From Bacillota bacterium (GTDB lineage: Bacteria; Bacillota; Clostridia; Acetivibrionales; DTU013): a DNA stretch of 64,000 bases. Shown here one piece after another: positions 7,153-22,421 of the stretch. The first letter of the stretch is position 1. Each line of letters opens with the position of its first letter. Both the position numbers and the translations under genes were made by a program. The DNA lies in the NCBI GenBank assembly GCA_023412915.1, contig JAEZRE010000018.1, forward strand, positions 123,127 through 187,126, read 5' to 3'. Below the pieces are notes generated by a model. That model was not told the origin of the DNA. It searched no databases and saw nothing but the letters and a program-made list of their open reading frames with translations.

Positions 7153-7207
7153 GTAATTGTAATCAGTTTTTAAAAACGATTATGAAAAATGAAAAGGAGG
7201 AAATAGA

Positions 7208-8584
7208 ATGTACAAAAAAAGCATCAGGCGCATCACCACCCTCATCCTCGTGGCTCTTCTCGTCGGGGGTGCATTTACCGGCTGCGGAGCGAACTCGCAA
7301 GGGACCGGGGATCAAACCTCTACCGCAGCGAATGCATCCACAGCAGTTGCAGAACAAACGGCACCTTCTGAAAAACCGACAATCAGAATAGCTCACACGT
7401 GGACTGCCGACAAAGGTGTGGACAAGGCTATAAACGATGGAATCAAAAATTTCATCGATGCCAACAAGGACCTCGCTAACTACAGTGTAGAAGCGGAGCA
7501 GGGGGATAACCTGAGAAACAAGATCAAGATCGATCTTGCCGCAAACAATCTTCCCGACATCTTCTACTATTGGGCGATCACTTCTTTGAAACCCATGTAT
7601 GAAGCGGATCTTCTCCTCGACGTAAATGAATATTTCGCTAAAAGTACGGAAGTAAAAGCCGAAGATTTCGTACCTGAAGCCCTCGCATCCTACACGCCGG
7701 ACGGAAAGCATACTTACGGAATCCCTACGGAGGGTTCGGCTGACTATCTTGCCTGCAACAAGGAATTGTTTGCAAAATATAATCTCCAATATCCTAAAAC
7801 CTACAAGGAACTTCTGGCAGTTGCCAAGGTCTTCTCAGACAACGGCATCATCCCCATGGCTGTTGGAGCCAAGGGCGGCAATCCCGGCCATTTCTTCTTT
7901 GCTGAAGCTTATTACCAGTTCGGAAGCTTTGATTACATGAATAAGGTAACCACCGGCGAAAACAAATTCGACTACGACCTGAACCAAAAGACAGCCGGCC
8001 TTATTCTTGACATGGCAAAGAACAAGGTATTCCCGAGCGATACTATAGGCAATGGAGATTTCGCTCCCGCAGTTTCCCTCTACAACGAGGAAAAGGCTGC
8101 TATGATTCTCGGACAGACCTGGTCCATCAGCAATTTCAAGGATGAGATCGTGTCAAAGACCGATCTGATCAGCTTCCCCAAATTCGAGGACGCAGTGAAC
8201 GATCCCGCAGGCTTTACAGTAGGCGGCGTCAACAACGGATGGGTTATAAACAAGGCCTCCTTCAACGATCCGGCAAAGCAGGCTGCCATCGTAAAGGCAA
8301 TGGACTATCTCGTTTCCGATGAAATGTATGTCTACATGGCTGAATTCGGACAGTTCATAATGAAGAATGTAGACATTTCCAAAGCAAAAATTTCTCCTCT
8401 GTACTCCAAGGTACTTGACTTTACGAAAGACCAGAAAAAATACGCAAACTTCTGGGTTCTGATGCCGGATCCCGTATCACAGGAAGTATTCAGTTCTTCA
8501 ATCGACGAACTCTGGGCGCAGGCAATTGACGCCAAGGGCTTCTGTGAAAAAGTTCAAAAATCCATAGACAAAGCAGTGAAATAA
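7208..8584 (+). CDS. extracellular solute-binding lipoprotein of the ABC importer
   Basis: Lipobox FTGC. AAAGGAGGA lies 7 nt before the ATG. Paralogue of 5732-7087. Followed by a stem-loop and two permease genes. Confidence 0.9.
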   Translation: MYKKSIRRITTLILVALLVGGAFTGCGANSQGTGDQTSTAANASTAVAEQTAPSEKPTIRIAHTWTADKGVDKAINDGIKNFIDANKDLANYSVEAEQGDNLRNKIKIDLAANNLPDIFYYWAITSLKPMYEADLLLDVNEYFAKSTEVKAEDFVPEALASYTPDGKHTYGIPTEGSADYLACNKELFAKYNLQYPKTYKELLAVAKVFSDNGIIPMAVGAKGGNPGHFFFAEAYYQFGSFDYMNKVTTGENKFDYDLNQKTAGLILDMAKNKVFPSDTIGNGDFAPAVSLYNEEKAAMILGQTWSISNFKDEIVSKTDLISFPKFEDAVNDPAGFTVGGVNNGWVINKASFNDPAKQAAIVKAMDYLVSDEMYVYMAEFGQFIMKNVDISKAKISPLYSKVLDFTKDQKKYANFWVLMPDPVSQEVFSSSIDELWAQAIDAKGFCEKVQKSIDKAVK

Positions 8585-8604
8585 ATTGGTTACCTGGCTT
8601 GAGT

Positions 8605-8634
8605 AAAAACGAGGGTGATTCACCCTCGTTTTTA
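8605..8634 (+). terminator. intra-operon stem-loop after the SBP gene (partial terminator or mRNA stabiliser)
   Basis: AAAAACGAGGGTG-att-CACCCTCGTTTTT, a 13-bp perfect stem followed by a T run. Confidence 0.7.
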
Positions 8635-8661
8635 AATAATCATGGGATCGAGAGGGATGTT

Positions 8662-9537
8662 ATGAAAAAGGGCGAAAACCTTTTTAGTGCGGTCTTTTTA
8701 GCTCCCGCGCTGATATTCTTTACTATATTGGTCATATTCCCAATCTGCCTTTCCACCTACTACACGCTGGTGGACTGGCCGGGGATCGGCGAAAAGACCT
8801 TTGTCTGGTTCAACAACTATAAAGAGATCTTCACGGACAGCGAATACTGGCAAGTAGCAAAAAACACATTTATACTGGTTGTGCTTGCAATTGTGATCCA
8901 AAACCCTTTGGGCATCATGCTGGCATACCTCATTTCACGAATCAAATTCGGGTACAAATTGTTCAGATCCCTTATATTCCTGCCGGTAGTCATATCTGCG
9001 GCAACGACGGGCTTAATGTTTTCATTGCTGCTGAACAACGATCTCGGTACCTTCAACAACATACTAAAGACGCTGGGATTGGGTTTTCTCCAGCATAACT
9101 GGCTCACAGACCCGAAAGTAGTATTGTATTCCGTAGCGCTTCCGCAGGTTTGGCAATACCTCGGAATTCACTTCATTATTTACCTGGCCGCAATCCAGTC
9201 CATTCCGCGTGAATTGTTCGAAAGCGCCTATATAGACGGCGCAAACGGTTTCCATGTACTCAGGAGGATCATCATCCCAATGATGTGGGAGGTCGTTCAG
9301 ATCTGCATCATCCTGAATGTCACCGGCTCCCTGAAGGCCTTCGATATGTCGTGGATCATGACGTGGGGTGGTCCGGGCTCCGCATCATCCTATATCTCGG
9401 TGCTTATGTTCCGGTATGCGTTTAAAGGCTTCAACTTCAGCTATGGCACTACGATTGCCATGACGATACTGATCTTTTCCCTGTTGTTTACTGTGGTTTT
9501 CAAGAAGTTTTTCTCCAAAGAGACCATCGAGTATTAG
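8662..9537 (+). CDS. ABC sugar transporter permease (MalF/UgpA-like)
   Basis: Six predicted TM segments. EAA-loop region ESAYIDGANGFHVLRRIIIPM. The start is moved to ATG 8662 (GAGAGGGA upstream) because the longer ORF would read through the hairpin. Confidence 0.9.
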   Translation: MKKGENLFSAVFLAPALIFFTILVIFPICLSTYYTLVDWPGIGEKTFVWFNNYKEIFTDSEYWQVAKNTFILVVLAIVIQNPLGIMLAYLISRIKFGYKLFRSLIFLPVVISAATTGLMFSLLLNNDLGTFNNILKTLGLGFLQHNWLTDPKVVLYSVALPQVWQYLGIHFIIYLAAIQSIPRELFESAYIDGANGFHVLRRIIIPMMWEVVQICIILNVTGSLKAFDMSWIMTWGGPGSASSYISVLMFRYAFKGFNFSYGTTIAMTILIFSLLFTVVFKKFFSKETIEY

Positions 9538-9569
9538 AGGAGCAATCCACATAAAAGGAGTAATTCGGC

Positions 9570-10418
9570 ATGAATAAAAATTCGGCAGCTAGTAAGCTAA
9601 AAAAGATAAGACCACTTTCCATCCTGACCTATGCATTTGTTGCAATCTATGGACTGGGCTGTCTTGTCCCCTTCCTGTGGGCTATACTGAATTCGTTCAA
9701 AACCAATGACGAGATTCTGGTGATGCCGTTCAGTCTGCCGCGTGTGTGGAAGATAATCAACTACATTGACGCCTGGGTTGGGGCGAAAATGGCGACCTAC
9801 TTTTTCAATACGGCAGTGTATACAATTTTGTCCACGGCAGTGCTTCTGCTGATCGCTGCAATGGCATCCTATATAGTGGCCCGTGTCAAACCAGGACTTT
9901 TGCTGTACACGTATTTCACGCTGGGAATCATGATTCCCGTACAGGCGATTATCCTTCCTCTGTTTATTACGATGAGGGATCTGGGGTTGACCAATACCAG
10001 AACCAGTATTGTTCTGGTCTATATCGCGTTGAATATCTCGATCAGCGTTTTTATCCTCGTAGGATTTATGAAATCCCTGCCCAGGGAACTGGAGGAAGCT
10101 GCACAAATCGACGGCTGCACAAGGTACGGAACCTTCTTCAGGATCATGCTCCCGCTTTCCTCGCCCGGACTTGCCACTATAGGAATCCTCGCTTTTTTGG
10201 GCAACTGGAACGAGTATTTGGTTCCGCTGATCCTTCTGACAGATAAAAAGCTCAAAGTTATTTCACTTGGCGTCCAGGAATTGAGAGGACTGTACTCGCA
10301 AGATTACGGGCTGATCACGGCGGGAATCGTAATCTCCTTCCTGCCGGTCGTTATCATCTATATAGCGTTCCAGGAAAAGGTCATTGCCGGTATGACCGCC
10401 GGCGCCGTGAAAGGATAA
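9570..10418 (+). CDS. ABC sugar transporter permease (MalG/UgpE-like)
   Basis: EAA loop EEAAQIDGCTRYGTFFRIMLPL. Multiple TM segments. AAAAGGAG precedes the ATG. Confidence 0.9.
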   Translation: MNKNSAASKLKKIRPLSILTYAFVAIYGLGCLVPFLWAILNSFKTNDEILVMPFSLPRVWKIINYIDAWVGAKMATYFFNTAVYTILSTAVLLLIAAMASYIVARVKPGLLLYTYFTLGIMIPVQAIILPLFITMRDLGLTNTRTSIVLVYIALNISISVFILVGFMKSLPRELEEAAQIDGCTRYGTFFRIMLPLSSPGLATIGILAFLGNWNEYLVPLILLTDKKLKVISLGVQELRGLYSQDYGLITAGIVISFLPVVIIYIAFQEKVIAGMTAGAVKG

Positions 10419-10455
10419 AAGCGGCGGAAAGAAAATTAACAAAAAGGAGAACGGT

Positions 10456-11868
10456 ATGAACAATAAACCTGTACTTGGCGTTATTGTCATTGCAAAAAAG
10501 AATCACTTCAAGGGTGAGGCCTATCAACTGCTGGAATACTGCAAAAAAAGGTTTTCAACGGATGAAACGATTGAATTGATGCTTGAGGAGAACGTCCTGT
10601 TCAACGAATCAGAGATCGCCTGCCATGCCCATACCATGGAAAAGGAAGGGGCCGACGCAATAATGCTCTGCGTTGGGACTTGGATATACTCTTCCAATAT
10701 CATATCGGCTGTGAACGATTTGAATATTCCCTTCGTGCTGTTCGGCTTGTCGGACCGCATAGCCAACGGCAACATCGGTGCCGCAATACAGATCAGATAT
10801 GTTTTGGAGGAAATGGGCAAAAACTTCCTGTTCCTGTCCGGAAAAATAGAGGATGAATCAAACTATCTTGAGATAAAGAAATACCTGAAGGCGGCATGGG
10901 TGAAGAAAAGTCTGAGGAACAGGAAAATCGCGACCATCGGCGGGAAATGCATGATGATGTACCAGACCCAGGTAAACGAATTCGACTGGAAGTCGGTGTT
11001 CGGGGTGGATTTCCCTCAATACGATACTGTCCATATATTCAAGGAGATGGAGAATGTTGACCTGGAGGAAGCCAGGAAGGTGGAGCAGGACTTCCTGGCC
11101 AAGGTGGATCAAATCCACTGGGAAACTGAGGACGGTGACAAAATCTCTGAGGATGCCATACTGTCTCAGGCTAAAATGTACCTGGCCTTTAAAAGGATGA
11201 AGAAGCTCTACGGAATAGACATCTTTGCCAACAAGTGCATGCCCGAAATGTCGGCCATTCCCTGCGGATACGGCTATGCCGGCTGCCTTGCGACCTGCAT
11301 GCTGAACGACGACGGAATCATGACCGCCTGCGAAGCGGATGTTCCTGCGGCGCTCTCCATGTATATCATGCACCTGCTTTCCGGAAATTCGGTCTTTTTT
11401 GCGGATATTACGCGTTTGAACAAAGCGGCGGGCAGGATAACCTTCTTTAATTGCGGCACGGCTCCCATTTCAATGGCGGACAAAAAGAAAGGCGTATCCC
11501 TCTGGCCCATTCCCGGCAATATCGCGGATGAGGCTCTGCCGGAGGAATATTATGTAGGGAAGATGAAGGGCGCCTGTATCAATCTGGAGCTGGAGGAAGG
11601 CCGCGAGGTCACCATATTGAGAGTCGGCGGAAACGGAGATTCTCTGCGCTTCTCCGTGGCGAAGGCAAAGACCGTCAAGAGGGAAGTTGAGCCTGAAGAG
11701 GTACTTGGAAACAGATGGCCGGGGTTCGGCCTGGAATTCAGGGAGGACATCGACAAATTCCTGAACAATACCACGGGTCACCATTACTCCCTTGCCTTCG
11801 GCGACTATACCAAGGAACTGGAATACCTTGCGAAAATTTATGGAATTAAATTTACAATAAACGAATAG
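10456..11868 (+). CDS. L-fucose isomerase-superfamily sugar isomerase (short, about 470-aa type)
   Basis: N-terminal Rossmann-like IGxxxI layout. ACEADV acidic catalytic-type motif, and C-terminal TTGHHYSLAFGD resembling the FucI/AraA C-terminal domain. AAGGAGA precedes the ATG. Confidence 0.7.
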   Translation: MNNKPVLGVIVIAKKNHFKGEAYQLLEYCKKRFSTDETIELMLEENVLFNESEIACHAHTMEKEGADAIMLCVGTWIYSSNIISAVNDLNIPFVLFGLSDRIANGNIGAAIQIRYVLEEMGKNFLFLSGKIEDESNYLEIKKYLKAAWVKKSLRNRKIATIGGKCMMMYQTQVNEFDWKSVFGVDFPQYDTVHIFKEMENVDLEEARKVEQDFLAKVDQIHWETEDGDKISEDAILSQAKMYLAFKRMKKLYGIDIFANKCMPEMSAIPCGYGYAGCLATCMLNDDGIMTACEADVPAALSMYIMHLLSGNSVFFADITRLNKAAGRITFFNCGTAPISMADKKKGVSLWPIPGNIADEALPEEYYVGKMKGACINLELEEGREVTILRVGGNGDSLRFSVAKAKTVKREVEPEEVLGNRWPGFGLEFREDIDKFLNNTTGHHYSLAFGDYTKELEYLAKIYGIKFTINE

Positions 11869-11880
11869 GAGAAACTCAAC

Positions 11881-13998
11881 ATGAATAACTGGTATAAAAA
11901 GCTTTATCGCAGACATCTCCTGGATTTCCACATCGACGACTGGAACGAAGAGTTCCTTTCAAAATTCGATCATTCCATAATCGCGGACAATCTTCAGCAG
12001 GCCAAAGTCGGTGCGGCTACTGTTTTTGCCAACACACATTCGGGGAAATGCAATTATCCTACAAAGGTCGGCGCTATGCACAGGGGTCTCAAAGGGAAGG
12101 ACGCCCTTAAGGAAATGATCGACAACTGCCATGCCAGAGGAATGAGTGTCGTCGTATATTACTGCCTGATCTATACGGACTGGTACTGGGACAACAATCC
12201 GGACTGCAGGATAGTGGACGCGGAAGGTAAGAGTGAAAAATTCACCATCAATTCGACCGGACGTCCGAAAAGGTTCAGCCTTTGCTGCCCCAACAACCTG
12301 AAATACCGCGATTTCGTGAAGGCGCAGCTGGAAGAGATCTGCACCGGGTATGAATTCGAGGGCGTGTGGCCCGACATGACCTTCTGGCCGACGGTCTGCT
12401 ACTGCCCTTCCTGCCAGGAAAGATATGCAAGAGAGGTCGGAGGGGAGATCCCGAGGATCATAGACTGGACCGATCCTAAATGGGTCGCGTTCCAGAGGAA
12501 GAGGCAGGAGTGGATTCTTGATTTTGTTAAGTTTGTAAATTCATCTATCCGGAAATACAAGCCGGAGGTAACCATAGCCCATCAGTCGCAGACCTATACG
12601 GACGACTGGCTGTTCGCACCTTCTGCGGAGCTGTCGAGGCATACCGACTGGCTTTCCGCCGACGTGTACAGGGACAAGACGGACATGTCCTTCCTGTCCA
12701 AGCTGTTTTACAGCCTGAGTGAATACAAGCCCTACGAGCACATCAACTGCTGGTACTATCCCAGCATACACGAACATGTCGTCGCCAGAACGGAGGACAG
12801 CCTGCGCTGCACAGCCTTCTCGGCACTGGCCAACAACGGATCCATGGTGTTCATCGACGCCATTGATCCTAAAGGAACAGTAAACAAAAAGAACTACCTG
12901 AAGGCCGGAAATATCTTCAGGGACGTTGAGAAATACGAGCAATACGCCGGCGGACAATACTGCCAGGATGTTGCGATCTATTACAGCTTCGAGTCACTCT
13001 TCGGCATGGAGGAAAACGGCAGGGACGTCATAAGCGCGGCGTACAATTTTCTCCCGGGCAGAAGGAAGCTGGGCATGAGCGCCCACAATAACGCCTCGCT
13101 CGGACTGGCCGGAGCGCTTGTGCAGAACCATATTCCCTATGGCGTCATAACGAAAAAGGATCTGGCTGACCTCGGCCGGTACAGTGTAATCGCTCTGTCC
13201 AATGTCGTCATGCTGGACGATGAAGAAATCAATGCTCTGAAGGAGTACGTCAGAGCGGGAGGAAGCCTTTACGCAAGCAAGTACACCTCTTTAATCACCG
13301 TTGATGGGCATAAACAGGACAATTTCCTCCTGTCGGAGCTTTTCGGAGTTTCCTTCGAGGGCGAAACCGGTGAAAAGCTTACCTATGTGGCCCCTGTAAA
13401 GGATGCGGAGGAATACTTCGGCGATTTCAACAGCGACTATCCGTACACAGTGCCCGACACACAGCTCAAAGTCCGGCTGAATCCCGGCGCAAGGGCGCTA
13501 GCTACGATCACACTGCCATATACGGATCCGACGGATACCAGATACTCCAGTATTCTGACCGATCCTCCGGGAATACCGACTTCCCATCCCGCAGTCGTCC
13601 TCAACGAGTACGGCAAGGGAAAGGTAATGTACAGCGCTGGAACCATCGAGAGCTGTGATTACGAAACACAGAAGCTTGTGATCGGCAACCTGATCAGGCT
13701 CCTCTCGGCAAAGCCCTTCTTTTTCACGGCGGACGCGCCCAAACCGGTGGAGATCACCATGTTCGACCAGCCTGACAACAAGCGGTCTATCATCAATGCC
13801 GTCAACTATCAGAGAGAGCTTCCCAATCTTCCGGTTAGAAATATACGCCTCAAGATCAGGCTCGACGGAAGAAAGCCGCGCAAGCTGAGTGTACTTCCGG
13901 ACGGCTCCGAGCTGGAGTTTGCCGTATGTGAGGATCAGGTTGAGGTCGTATTACCCGAACTGAATACTTTCATGATGCTGGAATTGAGTTATGAGTGA
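11881..13998 (+). CDS. putative glycoside hydrolase, GHL6-like TIM barrel plus beta-galactosidase-trimerisation-like (GATase1-like) domain; no signal peptide
   Basis: N-terminus YRRHLLDFHIDDW..AKVGAATVFANTHSG..CHARGMSVVVYY is typical of the 'hypothetical glycosyl hydrolase 6' family. The middle and C-terminal part resembles the GH42 trimerisation domain. Family call is by recollection only. Confidence 0.55.
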   Translation: MNNWYKKLYRRHLLDFHIDDWNEEFLSKFDHSIIADNLQQAKVGAATVFANTHSGKCNYPTKVGAMHRGLKGKDALKEMIDNCHARGMSVVVYYCLIYTDWYWDNNPDCRIVDAEGKSEKFTINSTGRPKRFSLCCPNNLKYRDFVKAQLEEICTGYEFEGVWPDMTFWPTVCYCPSCQERYAREVGGEIPRIIDWTDPKWVAFQRKRQEWILDFVKFVNSSIRKYKPEVTIAHQSQTYTDDWLFAPSAELSRHTDWLSADVYRDKTDMSFLSKLFYSLSEYKPYEHINCWYYPSIHEHVVARTEDSLRCTAFSALANNGSMVFIDAIDPKGTVNKKNYLKAGNIFRDVEKYEQYAGGQYCQDVAIYYSFESLFGMEENGRDVISAAYNFLPGRRKLGMSAHNNASLGLAGALVQNHIPYGVITKKDLADLGRYSVIALSNVVMLDDEEINALKEYVRAGGSLYASKYTSLITVDGHKQDNFLLSELFGVSFEGETGEKLTYVAPVKDAEEYFGDFNSDYPYTVPDTQLKVRLNPGARALATITLPYTDPTDTRYSSILTDPPGIPTSHPAVVLNEYGKGKVMYSAGTIESCDYETQKLVIGNLIRLLSAKPFFFTADAPKPVEITMFDQPDNKRSIINAVNYQRELPNLPVRNIRLKIRLDGRKPRKLSVLPDGSELEFAVCEDQVEVVLPELNTFMMLELSYE

Positions 13999-14067
13999 GT
14001 ATCGGTTTGAACGTGAAACGCAAGTGATATACGGATAAATGAACGTCATTCGGAAAGGACTGCGGAT

Positions 14068-15075
14068 ATGAAGAAAGTACTGTTAATCGGAGGGCCGGGC
14101 AATATTTCGACCAGCACGGTAAGCGAACTCCTTTCGAAGGGTTTCGAAGTCGGCATATTTACACTGCCTTCGAGCCCGAGCCTCGGATTTGAGAAGAATG
14201 TGACTTTTTACAGGGGGAACCGTGACAAGCGGGATGAGCTGGAGAGCGCCGTTCTTGCGTTCAAGCCCGACACCGTAATTGACTTTGTCTGCTTCAGACC
14301 GGAACAAGCCAGGCAGATGGCAGAACTTCTGTCCGGCAGGATCGGCCAGTATATTTTCATCAGCACGGTGGACGTATACGGCTACCCACTGACACACCTG
14401 CCGATGCGGGAGAACGATCCCAAAATAATGGGGAACTGCCAGTATGCCGTTGACAAAATGCTGTGCGAGAATGTACTTCGGGAGAAGGAGGAAAAGGACA
14501 AGCTGCCGCTGACCGTCGTGCGGCCGGTCTATTCCTTCGGCCCGGATTTCGTACTGGACCTGATGTCGCGAAAGGGCGGTAAGCAAATGCTGCTCCGGTT
14601 GAAAAACCATTTGCCCATTCTGGTGCCCGGTGGCGGGAATACGCTCATCCATGCCAGCAGCGCGTATAATACGGGCAGGATGATTGCGCAGCTGGCAGGT
14701 CACGCAGCCAGTATAGGTAAAACCTACAACTGCGGGCATCCGACCCCTATGACCCATGATGAATATGTGATGCTGTTTGCCGATGCGCTTGGTGTCAAGC
14801 CCAAGCTGGTGCACATTCCGTTTGAAATACTGCTTAGCCTGCGACTGCCGGAAATAGAGGAGGAAATCCTGCCGATCCTAAGCAGGTTCAATCTGTATTT
14901 CTCAACGGAAGCTTTTGTGAAAGAGTTCCCGGGCTTCGAGTGGGAGCTTTCGCTGGAGGAAGCCGCAAAACAATATGTGGAGCATAATTACAGGGCCGGC
15001 AATCTGGCCGGTCCCTTTGTGGAAGATTTCGAGGACCGGATTACGGCGGACTGGCTGACGAGGGTCGGGGACTAA
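14068..15075 (+). CDS. NAD-dependent epimerase/dehydratase family (extended SDR) protein
   Basis: N-terminal LIGGPGNIST glycine-rich dinucleotide motif. About 335 aa, which is typical length. Confidence 0.75.
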   Translation: MKKVLLIGGPGNISTSTVSELLSKGFEVGIFTLPSSPSLGFEKNVTFYRGNRDKRDELESAVLAFKPDTVIDFVCFRPEQARQMAELLSGRIGQYIFISTVDVYGYPLTHLPMRENDPKIMGNCQYAVDKMLCENVLREKEEKDKLPLTVVRPVYSFGPDFVLDLMSRKGGKQMLLRLKNHLPILVPGGGNTLIHASSAYNTGRMIAQLAGHAASIGKTYNCGHPTPMTHDEYVMLFADALGVKPKLVHIPFEILLSLRLPEIEEEILPILSRFNLYFSTEAFVKEFPGFEWELSLEEAAKQYVEHNYRAGNLAGPFVEDFEDRITADWLTRVGD

Positions 15076-15089
15076 TTGGAGGGGTAGGC

Positions 15090-16373
15090 ATGGAACACCT
15101 TAAAATATCGGATTCAAAGGATTGTTTTACACTGAACGGCAGGGAATTCTTCTACCTGGCGGATACTGTCTGGAGCGCTTTCACCAATCCATCCCGGGAG
15201 GAATGGGAGGAGTACCTCGATTACAGGAGGCTGCAGAACTTCAATGTTCTGCAGATCAATATCCTTCCCCAGTGGGACCGCAGCGGATGGGACCTTCCTT
15301 TGGAAATAGCCCCCTTCGCTGTGAAGCAGGACGGCACATATGATTTTTACAGCCCTAAGGAAGAATACTTTGCAAAAGCGCAGAAAATGCTTGATATGGC
15401 TGTAGAACGGGACTTCCGGATCGCGTTGGTGGTCCTGTGGTGCGACTTTGTAAAGGGCACCTGGGCCTCGGACCTGATGCCGGAGCATATGATGCCGCTT
15501 GATGCGGTGGAGCCCTATGTGCGGTATGTGCTGGAGAAATTCTCCCGGTACGACCCTGTCTATCTGGTCAGCGGGGATACGGATTTTCCTTCGGAGGAGA
15601 CGAACCGGTACTACAGAATTGCGTTGGAAACAATCAAAAGGTTATGTCCCGGAGCTATCACAACAATGCATCCGGCAGGCAAGCTGGCCGAGCTTCCCGG
15701 GGAATTTGAGAATTCTCGCGACCTGGACTTCTATATGTACCAATCCGCCCATTTCGCAGAGGATCAGCACATGCCCCGTGAAATGGCGGAGGTGTTTTGC
15801 CAAAAGGCGGTCAGACGTCCGGTCCTGAATGGAGAGCCTTGCTATGAAGGGCATGGATACGGTCGGAGATACGGCCGCTTCAATGCCTTCGACATCAGAA
15901 AAGCGACCTGGCAGAGCCTTTTATCCGGGGCGAAGGCGGGCATCGCTTACGGAGCCCACGGTGTCTGGTCCTGGCACAGAAAAGGAATGAACTTTGCGAA
16001 TGAGGCGTTTTCAAGCAAACCTTACGAATGGAGAGAGGCTCTCAGATTCAGAGGCGCATGGGATGTATCCTTCGCAAAGTATATTTTTGAGACATACCGG
16101 CTGTTCGATCTCATTCCCGGCGACATCGTCCGGAATGATACGAAGGAAATCCGGTTTGCTATGTCCGCGGACGCAGGCAAGTTTGCCATGTACGCACCCT
16201 ATCAGGCCGATATTGCAGTGAATATGGATCTGAGCGGATACGACCTGACACTCGTGAACCTGGAGGACAGGATTTTTGCGAGACCTGCGGCCGATTGTGA
16301 GCCGGGAGGGTCGATTCTCCGGATGAAGGAGTTCAACTCCGATGTGCTGGTGATTGGAATCAGAAGAGCTTGA
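15090..16373 (+). CDS. DUF4038 / GH140-like glycoside hydrolase; no signal peptide
   Basis: FFYLADTVWSAF, NVLQINILPQW and VLNGEPCYEGHG match the conserved blocks I recall for DUF4038 (GH140) TIM-barrel proteins. Confidence 0.6.
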   Translation: MEHLKISDSKDCFTLNGREFFYLADTVWSAFTNPSREEWEEYLDYRRLQNFNVLQINILPQWDRSGWDLPLEIAPFAVKQDGTYDFYSPKEEYFAKAQKMLDMAVERDFRIALVVLWCDFVKGTWASDLMPEHMMPLDAVEPYVRYVLEKFSRYDPVYLVSGDTDFPSEETNRYYRIALETIKRLCPGAITTMHPAGKLAELPGEFENSRDLDFYMYQSAHFAEDQHMPREMAEVFCQKAVRRPVLNGEPCYEGHGYGRRYGRFNAFDIRKATWQSLLSGAKAGIAYGAHGVWSWHRKGMNFANEAFSSKPYEWREALRFRGAWDVSFAKYIFETYRLFDLIPGDIVRNDTKEIRFAMSADAGKFAMYAPYQADIAVNMDLSGYDLTLVNLEDRIFARPAADCEPGGSILRMKEFNSDVLVIGIRRA

Positions 16374-16447
16374 GGTCACTTAAACGAAGCTGGAGCCCTG
16401 AACGGTTTGAAGGATGAACGCTACAAAAAATTACGGAGGGGTACAAA

Positions 16448-17056
16448 TTGGATAATAGAGAGCTGTGGAGCAGTATTTCGAACACATTGTCATCGGAAGC
16501 GGATGCCATTTTGAGGTTAACGGATTCCATATCACAGGAAGCTGTGCTTGAGGCTGTCAGACTCATAGGGGACTGCAAAGGGAAGGTATTGGTATCGGGC
16601 TGCGGAACCTCCGCGGCTGCCGCGAAAAAAATCGCCCATTCCCTTTGCTGCGTGGAAAGGCCCGCCGCTTACCTGAATCCGTCGGACGCAGTACATGGCG
16701 CGTTGGGGATGCTACAGAAGGACGACCTGCTGCTTCTGATCTCCAAGGGCGGCAATACCAGGGAGATTATAAGCATGATCCCTGCCTGCAAGACAAAAGC
16801 GGCAAAGCTTATCGGCATTACAGAGAATCCGGATTCCGTTCTGGCCAGGGAATCGGATCTGCTTTTGAAGATAAAAGTGGACAAGGAGCCATGTCCGTTC
16901 AACATGCTGGCAACCGCAAGCACTATGGCGGTAATCGCGGTATTTGACGCTATCTGTATCGCCCTGATGCACTACACGGGTTACACGCGCGAGCAGTTCG
17001 CCGTCATACATCCGGGCGGAGCGGTCGGCGACAGGCTGTTGTCGGGCGGAAAGTGA
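16448..17056 (+). CDS. SIS-domain sugar-phosphate isomerase/binding protein (single SIS domain)
   Basis: VSGCGTSAAAAKKIAHSL and LLLISKGGNT are SIS motifs. TTG start after ACGGAGGGG. Confidence 0.8.
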   Translation: MDNRELWSSISNTLSSEADAILRLTDSISQEAVLEAVRLIGDCKGKVLVSGCGTSAAAAKKIAHSLCCVERPAAYLNPSDAVHGALGMLQKDDLLLLISKGGNTREIISMIPACKTKAAKLIGITENPDSVLARESDLLLKIKVDKEPCPFNMLATASTMAVIAVFDAICIALMHYTGYTREQFAVIHPGGAVGDRLLSGGK

Positions 17057-17062
17057 GGAGAT

Positions 17063-18121
17063 ATGGTGGAGAAGATCAGAACGATGAAAGCAGCGGTTTT
17101 TGAAGGAATAGAGAGCATGGCGGTACGGGAGGTTCCGGTGCCGCAATGTGAAGAGGACGGCATGCTGGTCAAGGTTGAGACCTGCTGCATTTGTGGCGGA
17201 GATATAAGGAACTTTCATACGGGTCTGCGCTACGGAGTGGAAAAGCAGATCATGGGTCATGAGATTGCCGGCGTCGTGGAAGAGACCGGCAGCAGGGTAA
17301 CCAGGTTCAAAAAGGGAGACAGGGTGGCCATTGCTCCCGATGTGAGCTGCGGCGAATGCTATTACTGCAGAAGAGGGCTGGTAAATCTCTGCATGAACCA
17401 TAAAATGCTCGGAACCAACTGGCCGGGCGGATTTGCGCAGTATATCTACCTGCCGTCGGCCGTCATGGCACGCGGATTTGTCGAGCATGTGCCGGATTCC
17501 CTTGATTTCGACGAGGCGGCCATGGCCGAACCTGCATCATCCGTTATCGCCTGCCAGGAATACAATAATATCGGCCTGGGCGACACAGTTGTAATCATTG
17601 GAGACGGGCCGATCGGCTGCCTGCACATAGAGGTGGCCAGAGCCAGGGGCGCGTCAAGGATCATACTCTCGGGATTGAGCAGGCTCGATTCGGTTCCCCA
17701 GTTCGGGCCGGACTTCATTATAGACTCGGCAAAGCAAAATCCTGTGGAAGAGGTGCAGAAAATCACCGGAGGTATCGGAGCCGACATCGTAATCTGCGCA
17801 GCACCGGTGACCGCAATCCAGGAGCAGGCTCTGGAAATGGTAAGGAAGAGGGGCAGGGTAGTCCTGTTCGGGGGAGTGAATAAGAACAATCCAATGACCA
17901 CCCTTAACAGCAACCTGATCCATTACAATGAAATCACCGTAGTCGGAGCGTTCTCCTACCCGGCGACCGGCTTGTACAAGGCGGTGAACCTGATCGCGGA
18001 AGGAAGGATCTCAGCAAAGAAATATGTGACGAAAAAGGTAAAGCTCAATGAAATCCCTGAGGGAATCGCCTGCGCCGAACAAGGCAAGGCGCTGAGGGTT
18101 GCAGTTAAGCCCTGGGAATAG
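17063..18121 (+). CDS. zinc-dependent medium-chain alcohol/polyol dehydrogenase
   Basis: GHEIAGVVEE catalytic zinc motif. Structural zinc CGECYYCRRGLVNLC. Rossmann motif VIIGDGPIG. The start could be ATG 17084 (MKAAVFEG). Confidence 0.9.
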   Translation: MVEKIRTMKAAVFEGIESMAVREVPVPQCEEDGMLVKVETCCICGGDIRNFHTGLRYGVEKQIMGHEIAGVVEETGSRVTRFKKGDRVAIAPDVSCGECYYCRRGLVNLCMNHKMLGTNWPGGFAQYIYLPSAVMARGFVEHVPDSLDFDEAAMAEPASSVIACQEYNNIGLGDTVVIIGDGPIGCLHIEVARARGASRIILSGLSRLDSVPQFGPDFIIDSAKQNPVEEVQKITGGIGADIVICAAPVTAIQEQALEMVRKRGRVVLFGGVNKNNPMTTLNSNLIHYNEITVVGAFSYPATGLYKAVNLIAEGRISAKKYVTKKVKLNEIPEGIACAEQGKALRVAVKPWE

Positions 18122-18151
18122 GCAGTTAAAATTAAATTATGAGGTGATCAT

Positions 18152-19435
18152 ATGTATGAAATAGACGCAAGGCTTTTGGAAAGAGAAAAGGCGGGAAAGC
18201 TCGTTATGGTAAGCCTCATCGGCTGCGGTCAGATGGGAACGGATATCATTGCGCAGGTGGATCAAATGAAAGGGATGCAGATTCCCGTCATTGTCGACCT
18301 CGATACGAGCATTGCATTAAAATCGTTGGAGACGGCGGAATGCAAAAGGGAGTACCTGTGTACGAATGATTTTGCAGAAGCGGAAAAAGCAGTAGGAGAA
18401 GGAAAGCTGGTTATAACGAACGACTGGAAAATCGCCGTCCGCCTGCCCCAGATCGAGGCGGTCATAGACTGTACAGGATCGCCTGTCATGGGAGCGACTA
18501 TTACGTTGGAATGCATTAATTACAGGAAACACATCGTCATGATGAATGTGGAATGTGATATTACCGTAGGCCCGATTTTAAGGCAAATGGCCCAGAATTC
18601 AGGCATAGTATACACTCTGGCGGCAGGCGACGAACCTGCGGCAATCATGGAACTCTACCGTTTTGCCAATGCGCTCGGCTTTACCGTGGTGTCGGCCGGA
18701 AAGGGGAAAAACAATCCTCTGGACCTGACCGCGACGCCCGACACGCTGGCAGAAAAAGCGAAGGCAAGGAATATGAGCGCATACATGCTTTGCGAATTCG
18801 TCGACGGCTCCAAAACCGCCATTGAAATGGCGGCCGTATCAAATGCTACCGGACTGGTACCGGATATCCAGGGAATGCATGGCGCAAAATCCACCGTGGA
18901 TACGTTGAACAAGGTCTTTTGTCCGAAAAAGGACGGAGGCGTGCTCGACAGGGTCGGCGTAGTGGACTTTGCAATCGGTGTCCACCCTGGTGTCTTCCTG
19001 ACCATCACCACTGAAAACAAGAGGCTGCGTTCCTCCTTCATTCAGCGTGATATGGGCGATGGTCCATACTATACGCTGTTCAGGCCATTCCATCTGTGTT
19101 CCATGGAAGTGCCCCTCACCGCTGCGCAGGCGGTGCTTTACGGAGAATCCTCCGGCCATCCGCTGAAAAAGCTTACTTCCGAATGTATAGCTATCATGAA
19201 AAAGGATGGTAAGGCCGGAGACAAGCTGGACGGCATCGGAGGGTACTCCTATCGCGTAAGCATCGATTACGCCGAGGTGGCTGCAAAGGACGGAATGCTG
19301 CCTGCCGGTCTTGCAAAGGGAGCAGTCCTGAAAAGAGATGTGAAGGTCGGAGAAATACTGACCTATGATATGGTCGAGCTCAATGATACGGTATTGCTTC
19401 AGTTGCGCAAGATACAGGACAAAATCTGCATATGA
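18152..19435 (+). CDS. NAD(P)-binding oxidoreductase with C-terminal SAF domain (COG4091-like 'homoserine dehydrogenase-like' family)
   Basis: N-terminal LIGCGQMGTD Rossmann motif. C-terminal VKVGEILTYDMVEL is SAF-like. Function of this family is unassigned as far as I know. Confidence 0.6.
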   Translation: MYEIDARLLEREKAGKLVMVSLIGCGQMGTDIIAQVDQMKGMQIPVIVDLDTSIALKSLETAECKREYLCTNDFAEAEKAVGEGKLVITNDWKIAVRLPQIEAVIDCTGSPVMGATITLECINYRKHIVMMNVECDITVGPILRQMAQNSGIVYTLAAGDEPAAIMELYRFANALGFTVVSAGKGKNNPLDLTATPDTLAEKAKARNMSAYMLCEFVDGSKTAIEMAAVSNATGLVPDIQGMHGAKSTVDTLNKVFCPKKDGGVLDRVGVVDFAIGVHPGVFLTITTENKRLRSSFIQRDMGDGPYYTLFRPFHLCSMEVPLTAAQAVLYGESSGHPLKKLTSECIAIMKKDGKAGDKLDGIGGYSYRVSIDYAEVAAKDGMLPAGLAKGAVLKRDVKVGEILTYDMVELNDTVLLQLRKIQDKICI

Positions 19436-19471
19436 CGCCGATCCGCATCAATTAACAGAGGGGGATATGTG

Positions 19472-20893
19472 ATGGACTACAGGGTAAAAATCGGCTTCGC
19501 GCCGACCAGAAGAACCATTTTCAGCATTGAAGACGCCTTAAAATACAAAGGGCTCATAGAGAAAAAGCTTTCGGACATGGGCGTGGAATACGTTGATATA
19601 AACGATGTCAACGAGGAAGGCCTGCTGTGGCAGGACAGCGATGTTGGCAAGGTTATCGCCAAGTTCAAGGAAGAAAAAGTAGACGCGCTTTTCTTCCCCC
19701 ATTGCAATTTTGGAACGGAATATCTGGTGGGAGAAGTCGCAAAAGCGCTGAATGTTCCCATACTACTGTGGGGTCCGAGAGATGAAGCGCCCCTGGCCGA
19801 CGGGGCAAGGTTGAGGGATACCCAGTGCGGACTTTTTGCAACCGGAAAGGTTTTGAGGCGTTTCCGTCTTCCCTTTACTTACCTTCCGAACTGCAGGCTG
19901 GAGGATGAGGCGTTTGAAAGAGGTGTGCGGAATTTTATTGCCGCGGCGAATGTCGTCAAGGAATTTAAAAAGCTCCGTATTCTTCAGATTTCTACACGCC
20001 CCGCTCCATTCTGGACAATGATGTGCAATGAGGGAGAGCTACTTGAACGTTTTGGCATACAGATCAGACCGTTGTCCATGACGGAGTTCACACACCGGGT
20101 CCGGAAACTGGATGCTTCCAACGATCCAGAGGTGCTCGAAACCGTGCGGTTCATGAAGGAGAACATGGAAATATGTGTGCCGGACGAGGCGGTGAAGACA
20201 CTTGCGGCCTTGAAGGTATCCATGAAGAGGTTCGCTTCTGAATTTGAATGCGGCGCCATAGCCATTCAATGCTGGGATGCCCTGCAGCAGGAATTGCATG
20301 TCATGCCTTGCGTAGCGAACTCGCTGCTCACCGACGAGGGACTGCCCGTGGTCTGCGAAACCGACATACACGGCGCAGTCAGCGCTGTTATGGCTCAAGC
20401 TGCCGGAATGGGAAGAACACCTACTTTCTTTGTGGACTGGTCCGTACGCCATCCCTGGAATGAAAACGGAGAGTTGCTGCAGCACTGCGGTCCATGGCCC
20501 ATATCTCTCGCAAAGGAAGGGACGAAGGCAAAGCTGGGCAGGCCGTTCGCATTCGATGAACACTGCCCGGGGTCCGTTATCGCCGAAATCAAGGGAGGAG
20601 AGATCTCCATTGTAAGGTTTGACGGGGACAACGGCGAATATTCCATGCTGCTGGGTAATGCCAGGGGCATCGAAGGGCCGAAAACCATCGGAACGTATCT
20701 CTGGATCGAGGTGGAGAACTGGTCCAGGCTGGAGCACAAGATTGTTACAGGGCCTTATGTTCACCATGCGGTCGGGATACATGGCGATATCGTTCCCGTT
20801 CTTTATGAAGCATGCAGGTATATTCCCGGTCTAAAGCCGGATTTGTATGACCCGATCCAGGATAAGGTGGAAGCCTGGCTGCGGGGAGAATAA
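19472..20893 (+). CDS. second L-fucose isomerase-superfamily sugar isomerase (divergent paralogue of 10456-11868)
   Basis: VVCETDIHGAV acidic motif and C-terminal GPYVHHAVGIHGD. GAGGGGGA lies 6 nt before ATG 19472. Confidence 0.7.
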   Translation: MDYRVKIGFAPTRRTIFSIEDALKYKGLIEKKLSDMGVEYVDINDVNEEGLLWQDSDVGKVIAKFKEEKVDALFFPHCNFGTEYLVGEVAKALNVPILLWGPRDEAPLADGARLRDTQCGLFATGKVLRRFRLPFTYLPNCRLEDEAFERGVRNFIAAANVVKEFKKLRILQISTRPAPFWTMMCNEGELLERFGIQIRPLSMTEFTHRVRKLDASNDPEVLETVRFMKENMEICVPDEAVKTLAALKVSMKRFASEFECGAIAIQCWDALQQELHVMPCVANSLLTDEGLPVVCETDIHGAVSAVMAQAAGMGRTPTFFVDWSVRHPWNENGELLQHCGPWPISLAKEGTKAKLGRPFAFDEHCPGSVIAEIKGGEISIVRFDGDNGEYSMLLGNARGIEGPKTIGTYLWIEVENWSRLEHKIVTGPYVHHAVGIHGDIVPVLYEACRYIPGLKPDLYDPIQDKVEAWLRGE

Positions 20894-20915
20894 TAAGCGG
20901 GTTGAGGTGAACGGT

Positions 20916-22421
20916 ATGTATTTGCTTGGACTTGATGTGGGAACAACTGGCACGAAGGCTGTTGTGTTCGATCCGGAGGGAAATATCAAGGGTTACGGAT
21001 TTGAGGAATATGATGTTATATGCGAGAAGCCGGGGTATGCGGAACAGGACCCGGAGAAGGTCTGGAACCTGACCAAACAGGTGATCCGGAAGGCAGTCAT
21101 GTATAGCGGCGTGAAAGAAATCGCGGCAATGAGCCTTTCTGTCCAGGGGGATGCTGTCATTCCTGTGGATAGAAATTTGAAACCGCTTCACAATACGCTG
21201 CTTGGAATGGACTACCGATCGTCGCTTCAGAGCCGCAAATGCTCGGAGCTGTTCGGCGACAGGGAGCTTTTCCGCCTTACCGGCATGAGGCCCCATCCGA
21301 TGAATTCCCTTACGAAAATTCTCTGGATCAGGGATAACATACCGGAGGTATACCAAGCCACCTACAAATTCATGACGTACGCCGATTTTATTCTGTCCCG
21401 ACTGGGCGCCGAGCCTTCCATCGACTATACGATGGCATCCAGGACCATGGCGTTTGACCTGGCAGAAAAAAAGTGGTCGAAAACCGTTCTCGACAAGACG
21501 GCAGTGGATGATAATCTGCTATCCAGGCCCGTACCGCCGGGTGAAACAGTGGGGAGAATCAACCCTGCCCTTGCCGTGGAACTGGGCCTGCCGAATAACG
21601 TCCTGCTGGTTTCCGGCGGCCATGACCAGACCTGTGCCGCTCTGGGAGCAGGTGTCGTGGAGGAAAGCATCGCCATCGATTCCCATGGAACCGCGGAGGT
21701 CCTGTCCACTGCCTTCAACAAACCCGTATTGAACGACGGCATGTTCAACGGATACTATCCCTGTTACTGCCATGCTAAAAACGGGATGTACTTCACTTTT
21801 TCCTTGAACCATATCGGAGGGATCCTGCTTAAGTGGTACAGGGACAATCTGGGCTATGCGGAGGTCAGGGAGGCGGAAGAAAAGCAGGAGCCTGTTTACC
21901 GGCTAATGGAGGAGAAGGCGCCGGAAGGCCCTTCTTCCGTATTGGTGCTGCCCCATTTCAATGGAAGCGGCACTCCGTGGTGCGACCTGGATTCCAAAGG
22001 CGCTTTCGTCGGCTTGACAATGTCGACGACCAGACATGATATCGTCAAAGGAATTCTGGACAGCCTTACCTATGAGCTCCGCATGAACATGGAGACAATG
22101 AGAAGCGCGGGAATCAGCATCCGGGAGCTCAGATCCGTAGGGGGAGCGGCTCGGTCCGCAAAGTGGCTGCAGATCAAGGCGGATATTACCGGATGTTCCG
22201 TTTCAACGCTCAGGGTCCGCGAGGCCGCTTGTCTTGGCGCGGCGCTTCTGGCCGGAACTGCGACGGGCTGCTACTCCGATTTGAATGAAGCGGTGAAGCA
22301 AACCGTAGTCGTTCATCACAAATATGAGCCGGACAATAAAATGGCCAAATTGTATGAAGAGAAATATAGCGCATACAAAGATTTATATGATACACTGAAA
22401 AGTATAAATAAAAGGCTCTAA
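20916..22421 (+). CDS. FGGY-family carbohydrate kinase (xylulokinase-like)
   Basis: LGLDVGTTGTKAVVFD N-terminal phosphate-1 motif and C-terminal SVGGAARS. The start is moved to ATG 20916 (GAGGTGA upstream); the longer ORF overlaps the preceding gene. Confidence 0.9.
   Translation: MYLLGLDVGTTGTKAVVFDPEGNIKGYGFEEYDVICEKPGYAEQDPEKVWNLTKQVIRKAVMYSGVKEIAAMSLSVQGDAVIPVDRNLKPLHNTLLGMDYRSSLQSRKCSELFGDRELFRLTGMRPHPMNSLTKILWIRDNIPEVYQATYKFMTYADFILSRLGAEPSIDYTMASRTMAFDLAEKKWSKTVLDKTAVDDNLLSRPVPPGETVGRINPALAVELGLPNNVLLVSGGHDQTCAALGAGVVEESIAIDSHGTAEVLSTAFNKPVLNDGMFNGYYPCYCHAKNGMYFTFSLNHIGGILLKWYRDNLGYAEVREAEEKQEPVYRLMEEKAPEGPSSVLVLPHFNGSGTPWCDLDSKGAFVGLTMSTTRHDIVKGILDSLTYELRMNMETMRSAGISIRELRSVGGAARSAKWLQIKADITGCSVSTLRVREAACLGAALLAGTATGCYSDLNEAVKQTVVVHHKYEPDNKMAKLYEEKYSAYKDLYDTLKSINKRL

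Follow-up and report, generated by a model that had tools for sequence, protein, structure and literature searches.

This study concerns a cluster of sugar-utilization genes in a 64,000-nucleotide stretch of DNA from a Bacillota bacterium of the order Acetivibrionales (contig JAEZRE010000018.1, positions 123,127 to 187,126), which is referred to here as the window. The cluster encodes parts of an importer, two hydrolase-like proteins and a set of catabolic enzymes. Its most interesting element is an enzyme of the DRL/DXR-II type at the centre of a deeply conserved gene module, which went unrecognized when this DNA was first annotated from the sequence alone (the original prediction). The leading hypothesis is now that this is an apiose utilization locus with an undescribed downstream route.

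Twelve closely packed open reading frames (ORFs) occupy positions 7208–22421 on the plus strand, on which all features of the cluster lie. A 13th gene, for an RpiR-family regulator with HTH_6 and SIS domains (Pfam; 22443–23324), follows 21 nt further on, as had been predicted, and a convergent minus-strand gene after it closes the unit. The original prediction counted 14 genes in 7208–22421, but its own list sums to 12. Two start sites were corrected. Permease 1 starts at ATG 8662 instead of the TTG at 8599 of the mechanical ORF, and the FGGY kinase starts at ATG 20916, downstream of a GAGGTG ribosome-binding site. Measured from these starts, the gaps between genes are 77, 32, 37, 12, 69, 14, 74, 6, 30, 33, 22, and 21 nt (the last before the RpiR gene), and the earlier statement that no gap exceeds 77 nt is then right. 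The domain assignments made earlier were all upheld by Pfam, and no operon enzyme scores above any NCBIfam equivalog cut-off.

The catabolic core begins with a SIS protein of 202 residues (16448–17056) related to the sugar-phosphate isomerases KpsF and GutQ (TIGR00393, 2e-46). Its score of 158.7 bits lies below the cut-off of 203.7, and it is a single SIS domain without the tandem CBS domains of KpsF/GutQ proteins. It matches a Listeria structure (Protein Data Bank (PDB) code 3FXA, 2e-80) with 60% identity by BLASTP, and arabinose-5-phosphate isomerases in the PDB at 1e-28 to 1e-33. The next gene (17063–18121) encodes a zinc-dependent alcohol dehydrogenase (Zn-ADH) of the polyol/ketose dehydrogenase type with ADH_N and ADH_zinc_N domains. 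Among labelled structures it comes closest to L-threonine 3-dehydrogenases, followed at a short distance by sorbitol dehydrogenase and ketose reductase. The DRL/DXR-II family NAD(P)-dependent oxidoreductase (18152–19435), a FucI-like isomerase (FucI2, 19469–20893), and a XylB-like FGGY sugar or polyol kinase (20916–22421) complete the core. The kinase contains FGGY_N and FGGY_C domains, and its TIGR01312 XylB score of 316 bits is below the cut-off of 380. PDB searches with the kinase, the Zn-ADH and the short-chain dehydrogenase/reductase (SDR) of the cluster returned generic relatives only.

FucI2 and a second FucI-like protein in the accessory block of the cluster, FucI1 (10456–11868), share only 20% identity. 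Both are proteins of 470–474 residues with weak Fucose_iso_C matches (31.7 bits, above the cut-off, for FucI1 and 19.6 bits, below it, for FucI2), and neither shows the defining features of an L-fucose isomerase (FucI). The best family match is to short SftI-type isomerases, and both align over their full length with the NCBIfam sulfoquinovose isomerase model SftI (1e-28 for FucI1 and 1.4e-35 for FucI2), far below its cut-off. Neither finds a sequence match in the PDB. SftI is a characterized sulfoquinovose isomerase (PMC7491151). The short FucI-like family had been called functionally unassigned, a view that does not hold, because this characterized relative exists and orthologues of FucI2 occur in putative apiose transketolase clusters. 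We propose that FucI2 would isomerize D-apiose to apulose.

The oxidoreductase had been described as a SAF-domain dehydrogenase of an unassigned family. It is a DRL protein, matching PF21135 at 3.8e-63 and the Brucella DRL structures 3UPL and 3UPY at 1.5e-108, with a full-length alignment to 3UPY. As is typical of the family, Pfam places the DRL catalytic domain between a Rossmann domain (NAD_binding_3) and the SAF domain. The DRL/DXR-II family thus has a solved structure and a known activity elsewhere. Reductoisomerase activity on DXP (1-deoxy-D-xylulose 5-phosphate) has been shown in Brucella and others, and family members complement E. coli dxr mutants (PMC3847144). DXR-II enzymes are told from the uncharacterized clades DLO1 and DLO2 by Gly-121, Thr-229, His-250, Arg-320, and Val-351 (Carretero-Paulet et al., PMC3847144). 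The window DRL keeps Gly-121, Asp-167, Glu-168, Lys-191, Lys-193, Thr-229, His-250, and Arg-320, and the replacement of Val-351 by threonine is the sole change among the named signature residues. More than 7000 homologues of the window DRL are found at E ≤ 1e-30; the sole evolutionary study of the family left genomic context unexamined.

Upstream of the core lies the import and hydrolysis block. It starts with a CUT1-type ABC solute-binding lipoprotein (7208–8584; SBP_bac_1/SBP_bac_8) and two BPD_transp_1 permeases (8662–9537 and 9570–10418), a set that defines a CUT1 importer. Neither the cluster nor the rest of the window encodes an importer ATPase, dedicated or of the MsmX/MsmK type; the single ABC ATPase of the window (270–2339, minus strand) looks like an ABC-F protein by eye, without a domain search. 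Firmicutes commonly use a shared ABC ATPase encoded elsewhere. The absence of an ABC ATPase, aldolase, transketolase, and dehydratase from the cluster, as originally described, was confirmed. After FucI1 follow a cytoplasmic hydrolase-like protein of the GHL6 and GH42M types (11881–13998; Pfam GHL6 1e-18, Glyco_hydro_42M, and a weak Alpha_L_fucos match), whose N terminus matches the α-L-fucosidase 6TVK at 8.5e-13, and an extended SDR of the “NAD-dependent epimerase/dehydratase” family (14068–15075; Pfam Epimerase 1e-10). The top PDB matches of the SDR, labelled “TAL effector”, contain no significant stretches and were rejected as compositional noise. The last gene of the block encodes a predicted cytoplasmic glycosidase of family GH140 (15090–16373). 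It matches PF13204 (Apiosidase) at 3.7e-82 with 276.9 bits over profile positions 9–319 of 320, as well as PDB entries 8T9W, labelled “Apiosidase” (8.5e-28), and 3KZS/5MSY (3.5e-13), and is probably a β-D-apiosidase. Signal peptides are absent from both hydrolases, and lipoboxes are present in both solute-binding proteins of the locus, which indicates that the glycoside is cleaved in the cytoplasm after import and upholds the intracellular cleavage suggested before.

A sensor gene set directly upstream (3055–7087) had been overlooked. It consists of a membrane sensor histidine kinase (3055–4899; dCache, HAMP, His_kinase, and HATPase_c domains by Pfam), a response regulator with an AraC-type helix-turn-helix domain (4896–5735; Pfam), whose gene overlaps the end of the kinase gene by 4 nt, and a second lipoprotein of the solute-binding type (5732–7087; SBP_bac_1, lipobox LLAGC). 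The latter is 60% identical to the transporter solute-binding protein and is probably the sensor partner of the kinase/regulator pair. A histidine kinase, an AraC-type response regulator, and a solute-binding lipoprotein form the usual three-component sugar sensor of Firmicutes. It is strongly supported that this sensor and the RpiR protein control the importer, the two hydrolases, and the catabolic core. Among expression signals, a promoter-like site TTCATA-16-TATAAT lies upstream of the operon at 7125–7152 (10 of 12 consensus positions, a pattern match alone). A stem-loop with a T run was read directly from the sequence within the 77-nt gap behind the solute-binding protein gene (8609–8633). 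It has a perfect 9-bp stem, ACGAGGGTG-ATT-CACCCTCGT-TTTT, and may act as a partial terminator or attenuator. A terminator scan found nothing convincing beyond it (20 weak sites against 19.4 expected by chance), in agreement with the earlier reading of it as the only terminator-like element, and an Rfam scan of the window found no riboswitch or leader RNA, only two tRNAs away from the operon.

Conservation of the core was first inspected in three distant carriers (Pleomorphomonas, Massiliimalia, and one 10-Mb genome) and then assessed in 80 species-representative genome loci with DRL homologues, all ORFs of which were run against the window proteins by BLASTP. None of these loci was identical to that of the window, whose DRL protein is found on metagenome assemblies only. 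The gene order SIS, Zn-ADH, DRL, (FucI-like), FGGY, (RpiR) was found in about 39 of the 80 loci, a number that leaves out a truncated Verrucomicrobiota locus (L013). This module spans at least seven phyla: Bacillota, Spirochaetota, Planctomycetota, Chloroflexota, Acidobacteriota, Candidatus Aerophobetes, and Alphaproteobacteria. The adjacency of the FGGY and RpiR genes is kept in the clade-A loci. Clustering of neighbouring ORFs placed the ATPase of a CUT2 importer beside the module in 26 of the 39 loci, its permease in 21, and its solute-binding protein in 19. The same clustering gave a FucI-like isomerase in 24, a SorC regulator in 15, and GH140 in 12. The frequent presence of a CUT2 monosaccharide importer suggests that the substrate is the size of a monosaccharide, and genes for ribulose-phosphate 3-epimerase (Rpe), which come after the module in five loci, point to a pentulose 5-phosphate as the product. 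Histidine kinase/response regulator pairs flank the module also in L011, L018, and L093.

Several loci vary this arrangement. A Peptidase_M24 gene (creatinase/prolidase fold) occupies the FucI2 slot between DRL and FGGY in L093 (11407–12516) and in L006, L018, L027, L031, and L043, where it may stand in for the isomerase without being homologous to it. In L093, a close relative, a gene for a methyl-accepting chemotaxis protein (6204–7919) lies between the CUT2 importer and the module, which hints at chemotaxis to the same sugar. A second, distant DRL paralogue, 38–42% identical to the window DRL, occurs in L034, L042, L051, L053, L056, L062 (Chloroflexota), and L012; except in the truncated L056, it adjoins a second FGGY paralogue a few kilobases from the main module. 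Residues Glu-174 and Phe-178 of the dimer interface are altered in these paralogues.

Close relatives of the window locus, with DRL proteins 85–88% identical, retain the core and exchange the periphery: one of three carries a CUT2 importer and a chemoreceptor, one nothing extra, and one a CUT1 importer and a fused GH140-GH127 protein. The window periphery (solute-binding protein, permeases, FucI1, GHL6, SDR, and GH140) in turn recurs without the core as a unit in metagenome contig L126, and parts of it are found on the shorter contigs L117 and L119. FucI1 homologues with 62–68% identity adjoin GH140 in these three contigs, accompanied in L126 by GHL6 and SDR genes, and in L019 a FucI1 homologue with 55% identity comes after AptB/AptA and a kinase. 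The SDR is found with GH140 or the module in L003/L007, L013, L014, L022, L126, L140, L144/L145, and L171/L174. Because core and periphery occur separately, the 15-kb cluster is a composite of a conserved core of four to five enzymes, a separately conserved import and hydrolysis block, and the three-component sensor.

Two independent neighbourhood tests connect the module with apiose. Among 85 non-core, non-transporter proteins neighbouring the clade-A modules, PF13204 is the commonest family, with 7 members, and no second glycosidase family is found within the 25 commonest families. GH140 genes adjoin 11 of 40 module-type loci (the 39 and the truncated L013) but none of 40 non-module DRL loci (p = 4e-4). 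The two characterized GH140 enzymes, BT1012 and an enzyme from a mangrove metagenome, are both β-D-apiosidases. The reverse test started from 80 metagenome loci around GH140 genes of the window type (43–55% identity), of which the 47 with at least 8 kb were judged. They were scored with the window proteins and, as a sequence reference, with those encoded by the apiose cluster of E. coli SE15; aptA and aptB are named in the E. coli apiose cluster, and strains with the same cluster grow on apiose (PMC13001218). Homologues of AptA, AptB, and AplK, 34–50% identical to the SE15 proteins, were found in 10 of the 47 loci and genes of the DRL module in 8. No locus contained both, so that all 18 informative loci hold one set only. 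In 7 of the 10 loci of the transketolase type, FucI2 homologues with 56–65% identity share a strand run with AptA, AptB, AplK, and GH140; others, with 61–76% identity, lie inside DRL modules. The presence of this family in both types of locus suggests that one isomerase feeds two alternative downstream routes.

Apiose, or an apioside, is quite likely to be the physiological substrate, and the substrate that the original prediction could put forward only as speculation has gained support from both tests. Its broader outline, import of a glycoside followed by intracellular cleavage and processing of an unusual sugar, was right and now stands on firmer ground. The literature on apiose and on DRL/DXR-II yielded no assignment for the enzyme set, which had been said to match no pathway, and no link was found there between apiose and DRL/DXR-II, PF21135, COG4091, or apiitol phosphate. 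Whether the operon is a system for apiose-containing plant glycosides with a novel downstream route built around the DXR-II relative is, from the sequence comparisons, an evenly balanced case.

In the proposed route, the imported glycoside would be cut in the cytoplasm to release D-apiose, which FucI2 would convert to apulose, a compound without a stereocentre. The Zn-ADH, acting as a ketose reductase, would reduce apulose to the branched pentitol apiitol, and the XylB-like kinase would phosphorylate the terminal CH2OH that adjoins the CHOH; the order of these two steps and the position of the phosphate are tentative. A precedent for apiitol formation is the D-apiose reductase (EC 1.1.1.114) reportedly described by Neal and Kindel in 1970. 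The DRL-like enzyme would then act as DXR in reverse, oxidizing a branch CH2OH with NAD(P)+, and a 1,2-shift or a retro-aldol/aldol sequence would give linear xylulose or ribulose 5-phosphate. Finally, the KpsF-like SIS protein, together with Rpe in some genomes, would adjust the pentose-phosphate isomer, although the reaction assigned to SIS is tentative. The whole route would be redox-neutral and would not require a transketolase, aldolase, or decarboxylase.

The scheme is drawn from the chemistry of the DXR reaction. Linearizing the apiose skeleton by a 1,2-shift would need one branch CH2OH as an aldehyde beside the tertiary carbinol, the arrangement of the DXR intermediate. Apiitol phosphorylated on C1 would be 2-C-hydroxymethyl-tetritol 4-phosphate, i.e. 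2-C-methylerythritol 4-phosphate (MEP) with CH2OH in place of the methyl group. Reverse DXR action on this compound would yield 1-hydroxy-DXP, which is xylulose 5-phosphate (or ribulose 5-phosphate). Direct reduction of D-apiose would give the (S) carbinol, opposite to the (R) carbinol of MEP, and the scheme therefore needs a detour through the isomerase. Achiral apulose followed by a stereoselective ketose reductase would account for the presence of both the isomerase and a Zn-ADH of the sorbitol dehydrogenase type, and the phosphorylation of a terminal CH2OH beside a D-configured CHOH would suit a kinase of the XylB type. The SIS protein probably acts late, on a pentose or pentulose 5-phosphate, since it is 60% identical to the Listeria SIS protein, which belongs to an operon with a Gat-type phosphotransferase system (PTS), Zn-ADH, and Rpe but without DRL.

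Two other schemes were considered and rejected. An α-ketol shift straight on apulose 1-phosphate or apulose 4-phosphate would merely interconvert branched isomers. Reducing D-apiose directly and then phosphorylating the product would give the wrong carbinol configuration compared with MEP, unless a retro-aldol mechanism erased the centre. Two further variants are kept as alternatives. In one, which makes use of SIS, a branch CH2OH would be phosphorylated and the CH2OP group would migrate to give a 3-pentulose 5-phosphate for SIS to act on, a poorer fit to the geometry of a DXP-like active site. In the other, an aldolase would act on a pentulose 1-phosphate product. Genes for Aldolase_II, RpiB, and TIM are found in Massiliimalia (L003, 14119–16075) after the RpiR gene of the module, and a third GH140 gene comes after them. 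They have a bearing on the product of the module and would be compatible with an L-ribulose-5-phosphate epimerase, a pentulose-1-phosphate aldolase, or tetrulose-phosphate isomerases.

For the proposed DRL step itself, the module-linked proteins retain Lys-191, Lys-193, and Thr-229, the fosmidomycin and substrate anchors, as well as Asp-167, Glu-168, His-250, and Arg-320 across all clades. Consistent differences from a second group of DRL proteins, encoded beside E1 subunit genes, are confined to three positions (L308R, K309D, and P350L), at which the E1-linked group resembles Brucella DRL. The unchanged anchors, the three class-specific positions, and the Rpe neighbours are consistent with a small change of substrate, without proving one. 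We regard it as equally plausible that the DRL-like enzyme would, or would not, straighten the apiose skeleton in the proposed manner.

Several observations speak against the apiose scheme. It rests, for every module protein, on comparison of sequence and gene context, and a DXR-like active site is by itself no proof of a skeletal rearrangement. In about 15 of the 39 module loci there is no FucI-like gene within 10 kb, with an M24-like gene instead in some, although the scheme requires the isomerase detour. The SIS protein is universal in the core yet dispensable in the simplest scheme. In the reverse test, 29 of the 47 long GH140 loci contained neither route. In the genome loci L012 and L019 the module adjoins genes of the AptAB/AplK type, so that the two routes are not strictly exclusive and a related but different substrate of the module is possible there. 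Module-adjacent solute-binding proteins are only 24–28% identical to the E. coli apiose-binding protein. Finally, a module-linked CUT2 solute-binding protein matches many ribose-type proteins in the PDB about equally well. These include 5IBQ/4RY0, which we take to be an apiose binder, and the match does not discriminate.

The rival explanation that survives best takes the core to serve a linear pentose or pentitol, such as D-arabinose, xylitol, or an arabitol. The DRL protein would then simply dehydrogenate a polyol phosphate, SIS would be a genuine arabinose-5-phosphate isomerase, and the link with GH140 would be indirect. A Zn-ADH and a XylB-like kinase are indeed a classical pentitol pair, FucI enzymes act on D-arabinose, and the close Listeria relative of SIS belongs to an operon of the Gat-type PTS/Zn-ADH/Rpe kind that lacks DRL. 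What makes this reading unlikely is that GH140 is the sole recurring glycosidase family, that FucI2 is common to the apiose transketolase clusters, that four to five enzymes exceed the needs of a pentitol, and that the substrate-binding signature of DXR-II is retained.

A second rival holds that the known transketolase route is present in disguise. FucI2 and the FGGY kinase would make an apulose phosphate, a housekeeping transketolase would complete the route, and Zn-ADH, DRL, and SIS would serve side reactions or a second substrate. The partnership of FucI2 orthologues with AptAB and AplK homologues and the adjacency of both gene sets in L012 and L019 are as expected from this reading. The kinase speaks against it: the module kinases are XylB-like and the AplK-type kinases GlpK-like, with a mutual identity of 24–27% (24% between the window kinase and E. 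coli AplK), and such a distance argues for another substrate or another site of phosphorylation. Moreover, Zn-ADH, DRL, and SIS stay with the kinase over seven phyla, which is hard to square with dispensable side activities, and each of the 18 informative GH140 loci holds either AptAB or the DRL module and in no case the two together. Taken together, these points render the second rival decidedly improbable.

Alternatively, the core could act on another rare sugar of rhamnogalacturonan-II, for example the branched aceric acid released with apiose, which itself would be handled by other genes. One close relative of the window locus gives this idea some substance. L095, whose DRL protein is 87% identical, carries a fused GH140-GH127 protein, and GH127 includes the aceric-acid hydrolase BT1003; it also has genes of the families Gfo/Idh/MocA, Amidohydro_2, and AP_endonuc_2, which presumably correspond to those of the oxidative apiose route. 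Most module loci, however, combine a monosaccharide importer with the absence of GH127. A decarboxylase, as a carboxy-branched sugar would call for, is missing from the core, and free aceric acid is far rarer than apiose; we rate this reading as very unlikely. The fusion in L095 (4535–8077) is a protein of 1180 residues with DUF5060, GH140, and GH127 domains, and PGDH_C, Amidohydro_2, Gfo/Idh/MocA, AP_endonuc_2, and E1/E2 genes lie beside the module; it points to fragments of rhamnogalacturonan-II side chain B as a substrate. Almost no credence can be given to the last rival, that the DRL gene encodes the isoprenoid DXP reductoisomerase of the organism and sits in a sugar operon by chance, for although all DXR-II signature residues but one are present and dxr mutants of E. 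coli are complemented by members of the family (PMC3847144), the gene stands within an array of 13 genes under sugar regulators, is only 30–33 nt from its neighbour on each side, keeps the same neighbours across seven phyla, and is accompanied by no other MEP-pathway gene among the window translations.

The second genomic context of DRL, in at least 20 non-module loci, is a DRL gene followed by genes for E1α, E1β, and E2 subunits resembling those of acetoin or pyruvate dehydrogenases. These loci include L025, L026, L041, L045, and L054–L085, and SorC regulators are frequent among them. On a Rhizobium sp. B230/85 plasmid (L087, 8962–13609) the DRL-E1α/E1β/E2 genes are accompanied by SorC and a PTS, and on a Priestia plasmid (L086, 9001–12221) by SorC, an MFS transporter, and an FGGY kinase. 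As DXP is an acetoin-like methyl ketone, the gene set can be read as a route from methylerythritol via MEP and DXP to acetyl-CoA and glyceraldehyde 3-phosphate, and these clusters may degrade methylerythritol in this way. No report of such DRL-E1/E2 methylerythritol catabolism was found in the literature. The E1/E2-linked loci support the view that the DRL family acts catabolically elsewhere. The relatives from Halanaerobium and Tepidanaerobacter belong to the E1-linked group, and species of these genera were counted as DXR-II in PMC3847144. Among the sampled sequences, the E1α/E1β/E2-linked clusters are the closest neighbours of the Brucella-type DXR-II.

With the balance leaning slightly against it, we tentatively put forward a wider reading. 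The module-linked branch of the DRL family would consist of catabolic oxido-isomerases, of which the window enzyme would act on the hydroxymethyl analogue of MEP, a phosphorylated derivative of apiose, to make xylulose or ribulose 5-phosphate. It would provide a fifth apiose route, without cleavage of a carbon-carbon bond, in at least seven phyla, and the DXR-II of Brucella and its relatives would have been recruited from such enzymes.

Every plant cell wall contains apiose as part of rhamnogalacturonan-II. The sugar also accounts for much of the pectin of duckweed and seagrass, and many flavonoid and aroma glycosides in the diet carry it. The four known bacterial routes leave its use by most of the sampled Firmicutes, Spirochaetes, Chloroflexi, and Planctomycetes unexplained. 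If true, the conversion of the branched skeleton to a linear pentose phosphate would add new enzymology to sugar catabolism. It would also give a physiological role to thousands of proteins annotated as “NAD(P)-dependent oxidoreductase” or “homoserine dehydrogenase-like”, account for the origin of the alternative isoprenoid enzyme DXR-II, which alters fosmidomycin sensitivity, and supply marker genes for cross-feeding on apiose and rhamnogalacturonan-II in gut and sediment metagenomes.

The remainder of the window, read by eye, is housekeeping DNA of the Clostridia type, with subunits of a 2-oxoacid:ferredoxin oxidoreductase, Tad pilus genes, murA, ftsA, and ftsZ. A likely two-component pair of the LytTR type (40836–42847, minus strand), a likely DegS/DegU-like pair (43625–45446, plus strand), and a Tad/Flp-type pilus assembly set with CpaB-, TadZ-, CpaF/TadA-, TadB-, and TadC-like genes (46366–51682, plus strand) were recognized in the same way. 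The two tRNA genes are located at 36046–36117 (plus strand) and 43312–43384 (minus strand).

The module can be compared with several known systems. The lmo0501–lmo0508-type operon of Listeria monocytogenes (L090, 8937–15812) encodes a BglG antiterminator, SIS, a Gat-type PTS, Rpe, and Zn-ADH, with rpiB, rpe, and tal upstream. Beyond the shared SIS protein, its Rpe is 37–49% identical to module-adjacent Rpe proteins; it lacks DRL and the FGGY kinase, and its ADH is only 32% identical to that of the window. Nothing was found in the literature on the function of this operon, and its substrate would probably fix the reaction of SIS in the module.

The non-oxidative D-apiose pathway, reportedly established by Carter and colleagues in 2018 as ApsI/AplK/AptAB, also has features in common with the cluster. 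The presumed substrate is the same as that of the E. coli ST131 cluster (PMC13001218), and homologous clusters have the same GH140 neighbours and an isomerase of the FucI2 type. Both routes are expected to end in pentose phosphates. No ORF in the 64-kb window, however, matches AptA or AptB of the split transketolase of E. coli SE15 at E < 1e-5, the kinase is XylB-like and not GlpK-like as AplK is, and three further conserved enzymes, Zn-ADH, DRL, and SIS, are present. The oxidative routes are said, also by Carter and colleagues in 2018, to employ a Gfo/Idh/MocA dehydrogenase, an amidohydrolase-type lactonase, a DUF1537-type kinase, a RuBisCO-like protein, and a decarboxylase of the xylose-isomerase fold; by Pfam, none of these families occurs among the 13 genes. 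The cluster thus has none of the hallmarks of the four known apiose routes, as far as this list of families defines the oxidative ones.

The D-apionate oxidoisomerase ApnO offers an analogy in chemistry, since NAD+-dependent oxidation there goes together with the movement of a carbon substituent on the apiose skeleton (PMC12994016). Unlike the proposed DRL step, ApnO acts on a sugar acid, the skeleton stays branched, and decarboxylation follows. Brucella abortus DXR-II/DRL (3UPL/3UPY) has the same fold, family, and order of NAD(P)-binding, catalytic, and SAF domains as the window DRL. The window gene, in contrast, belongs to a sugar operon with a kinase, Zn-ADH, and SIS and not to isoprenoid metabolism, its product differs by L308R, K309D, P350L, and V351T, and the proposed reaction would run in the oxidative, catabolic direction on the hydroxymethyl analogue of the methyl substrate. 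UDP-apiose/UDP-xylose synthase interconverts a linear pentose and the apiose skeleton via a branch aldehyde by retro-aldol/aldol chemistry with bound NAD+. It is an SDR that acts on nucleotide sugars and does not have the DRL fold, and the SDR of the cluster falls in the same broad superfamily; the proposed DRL step would be the catabolic mirror image of its reaction.

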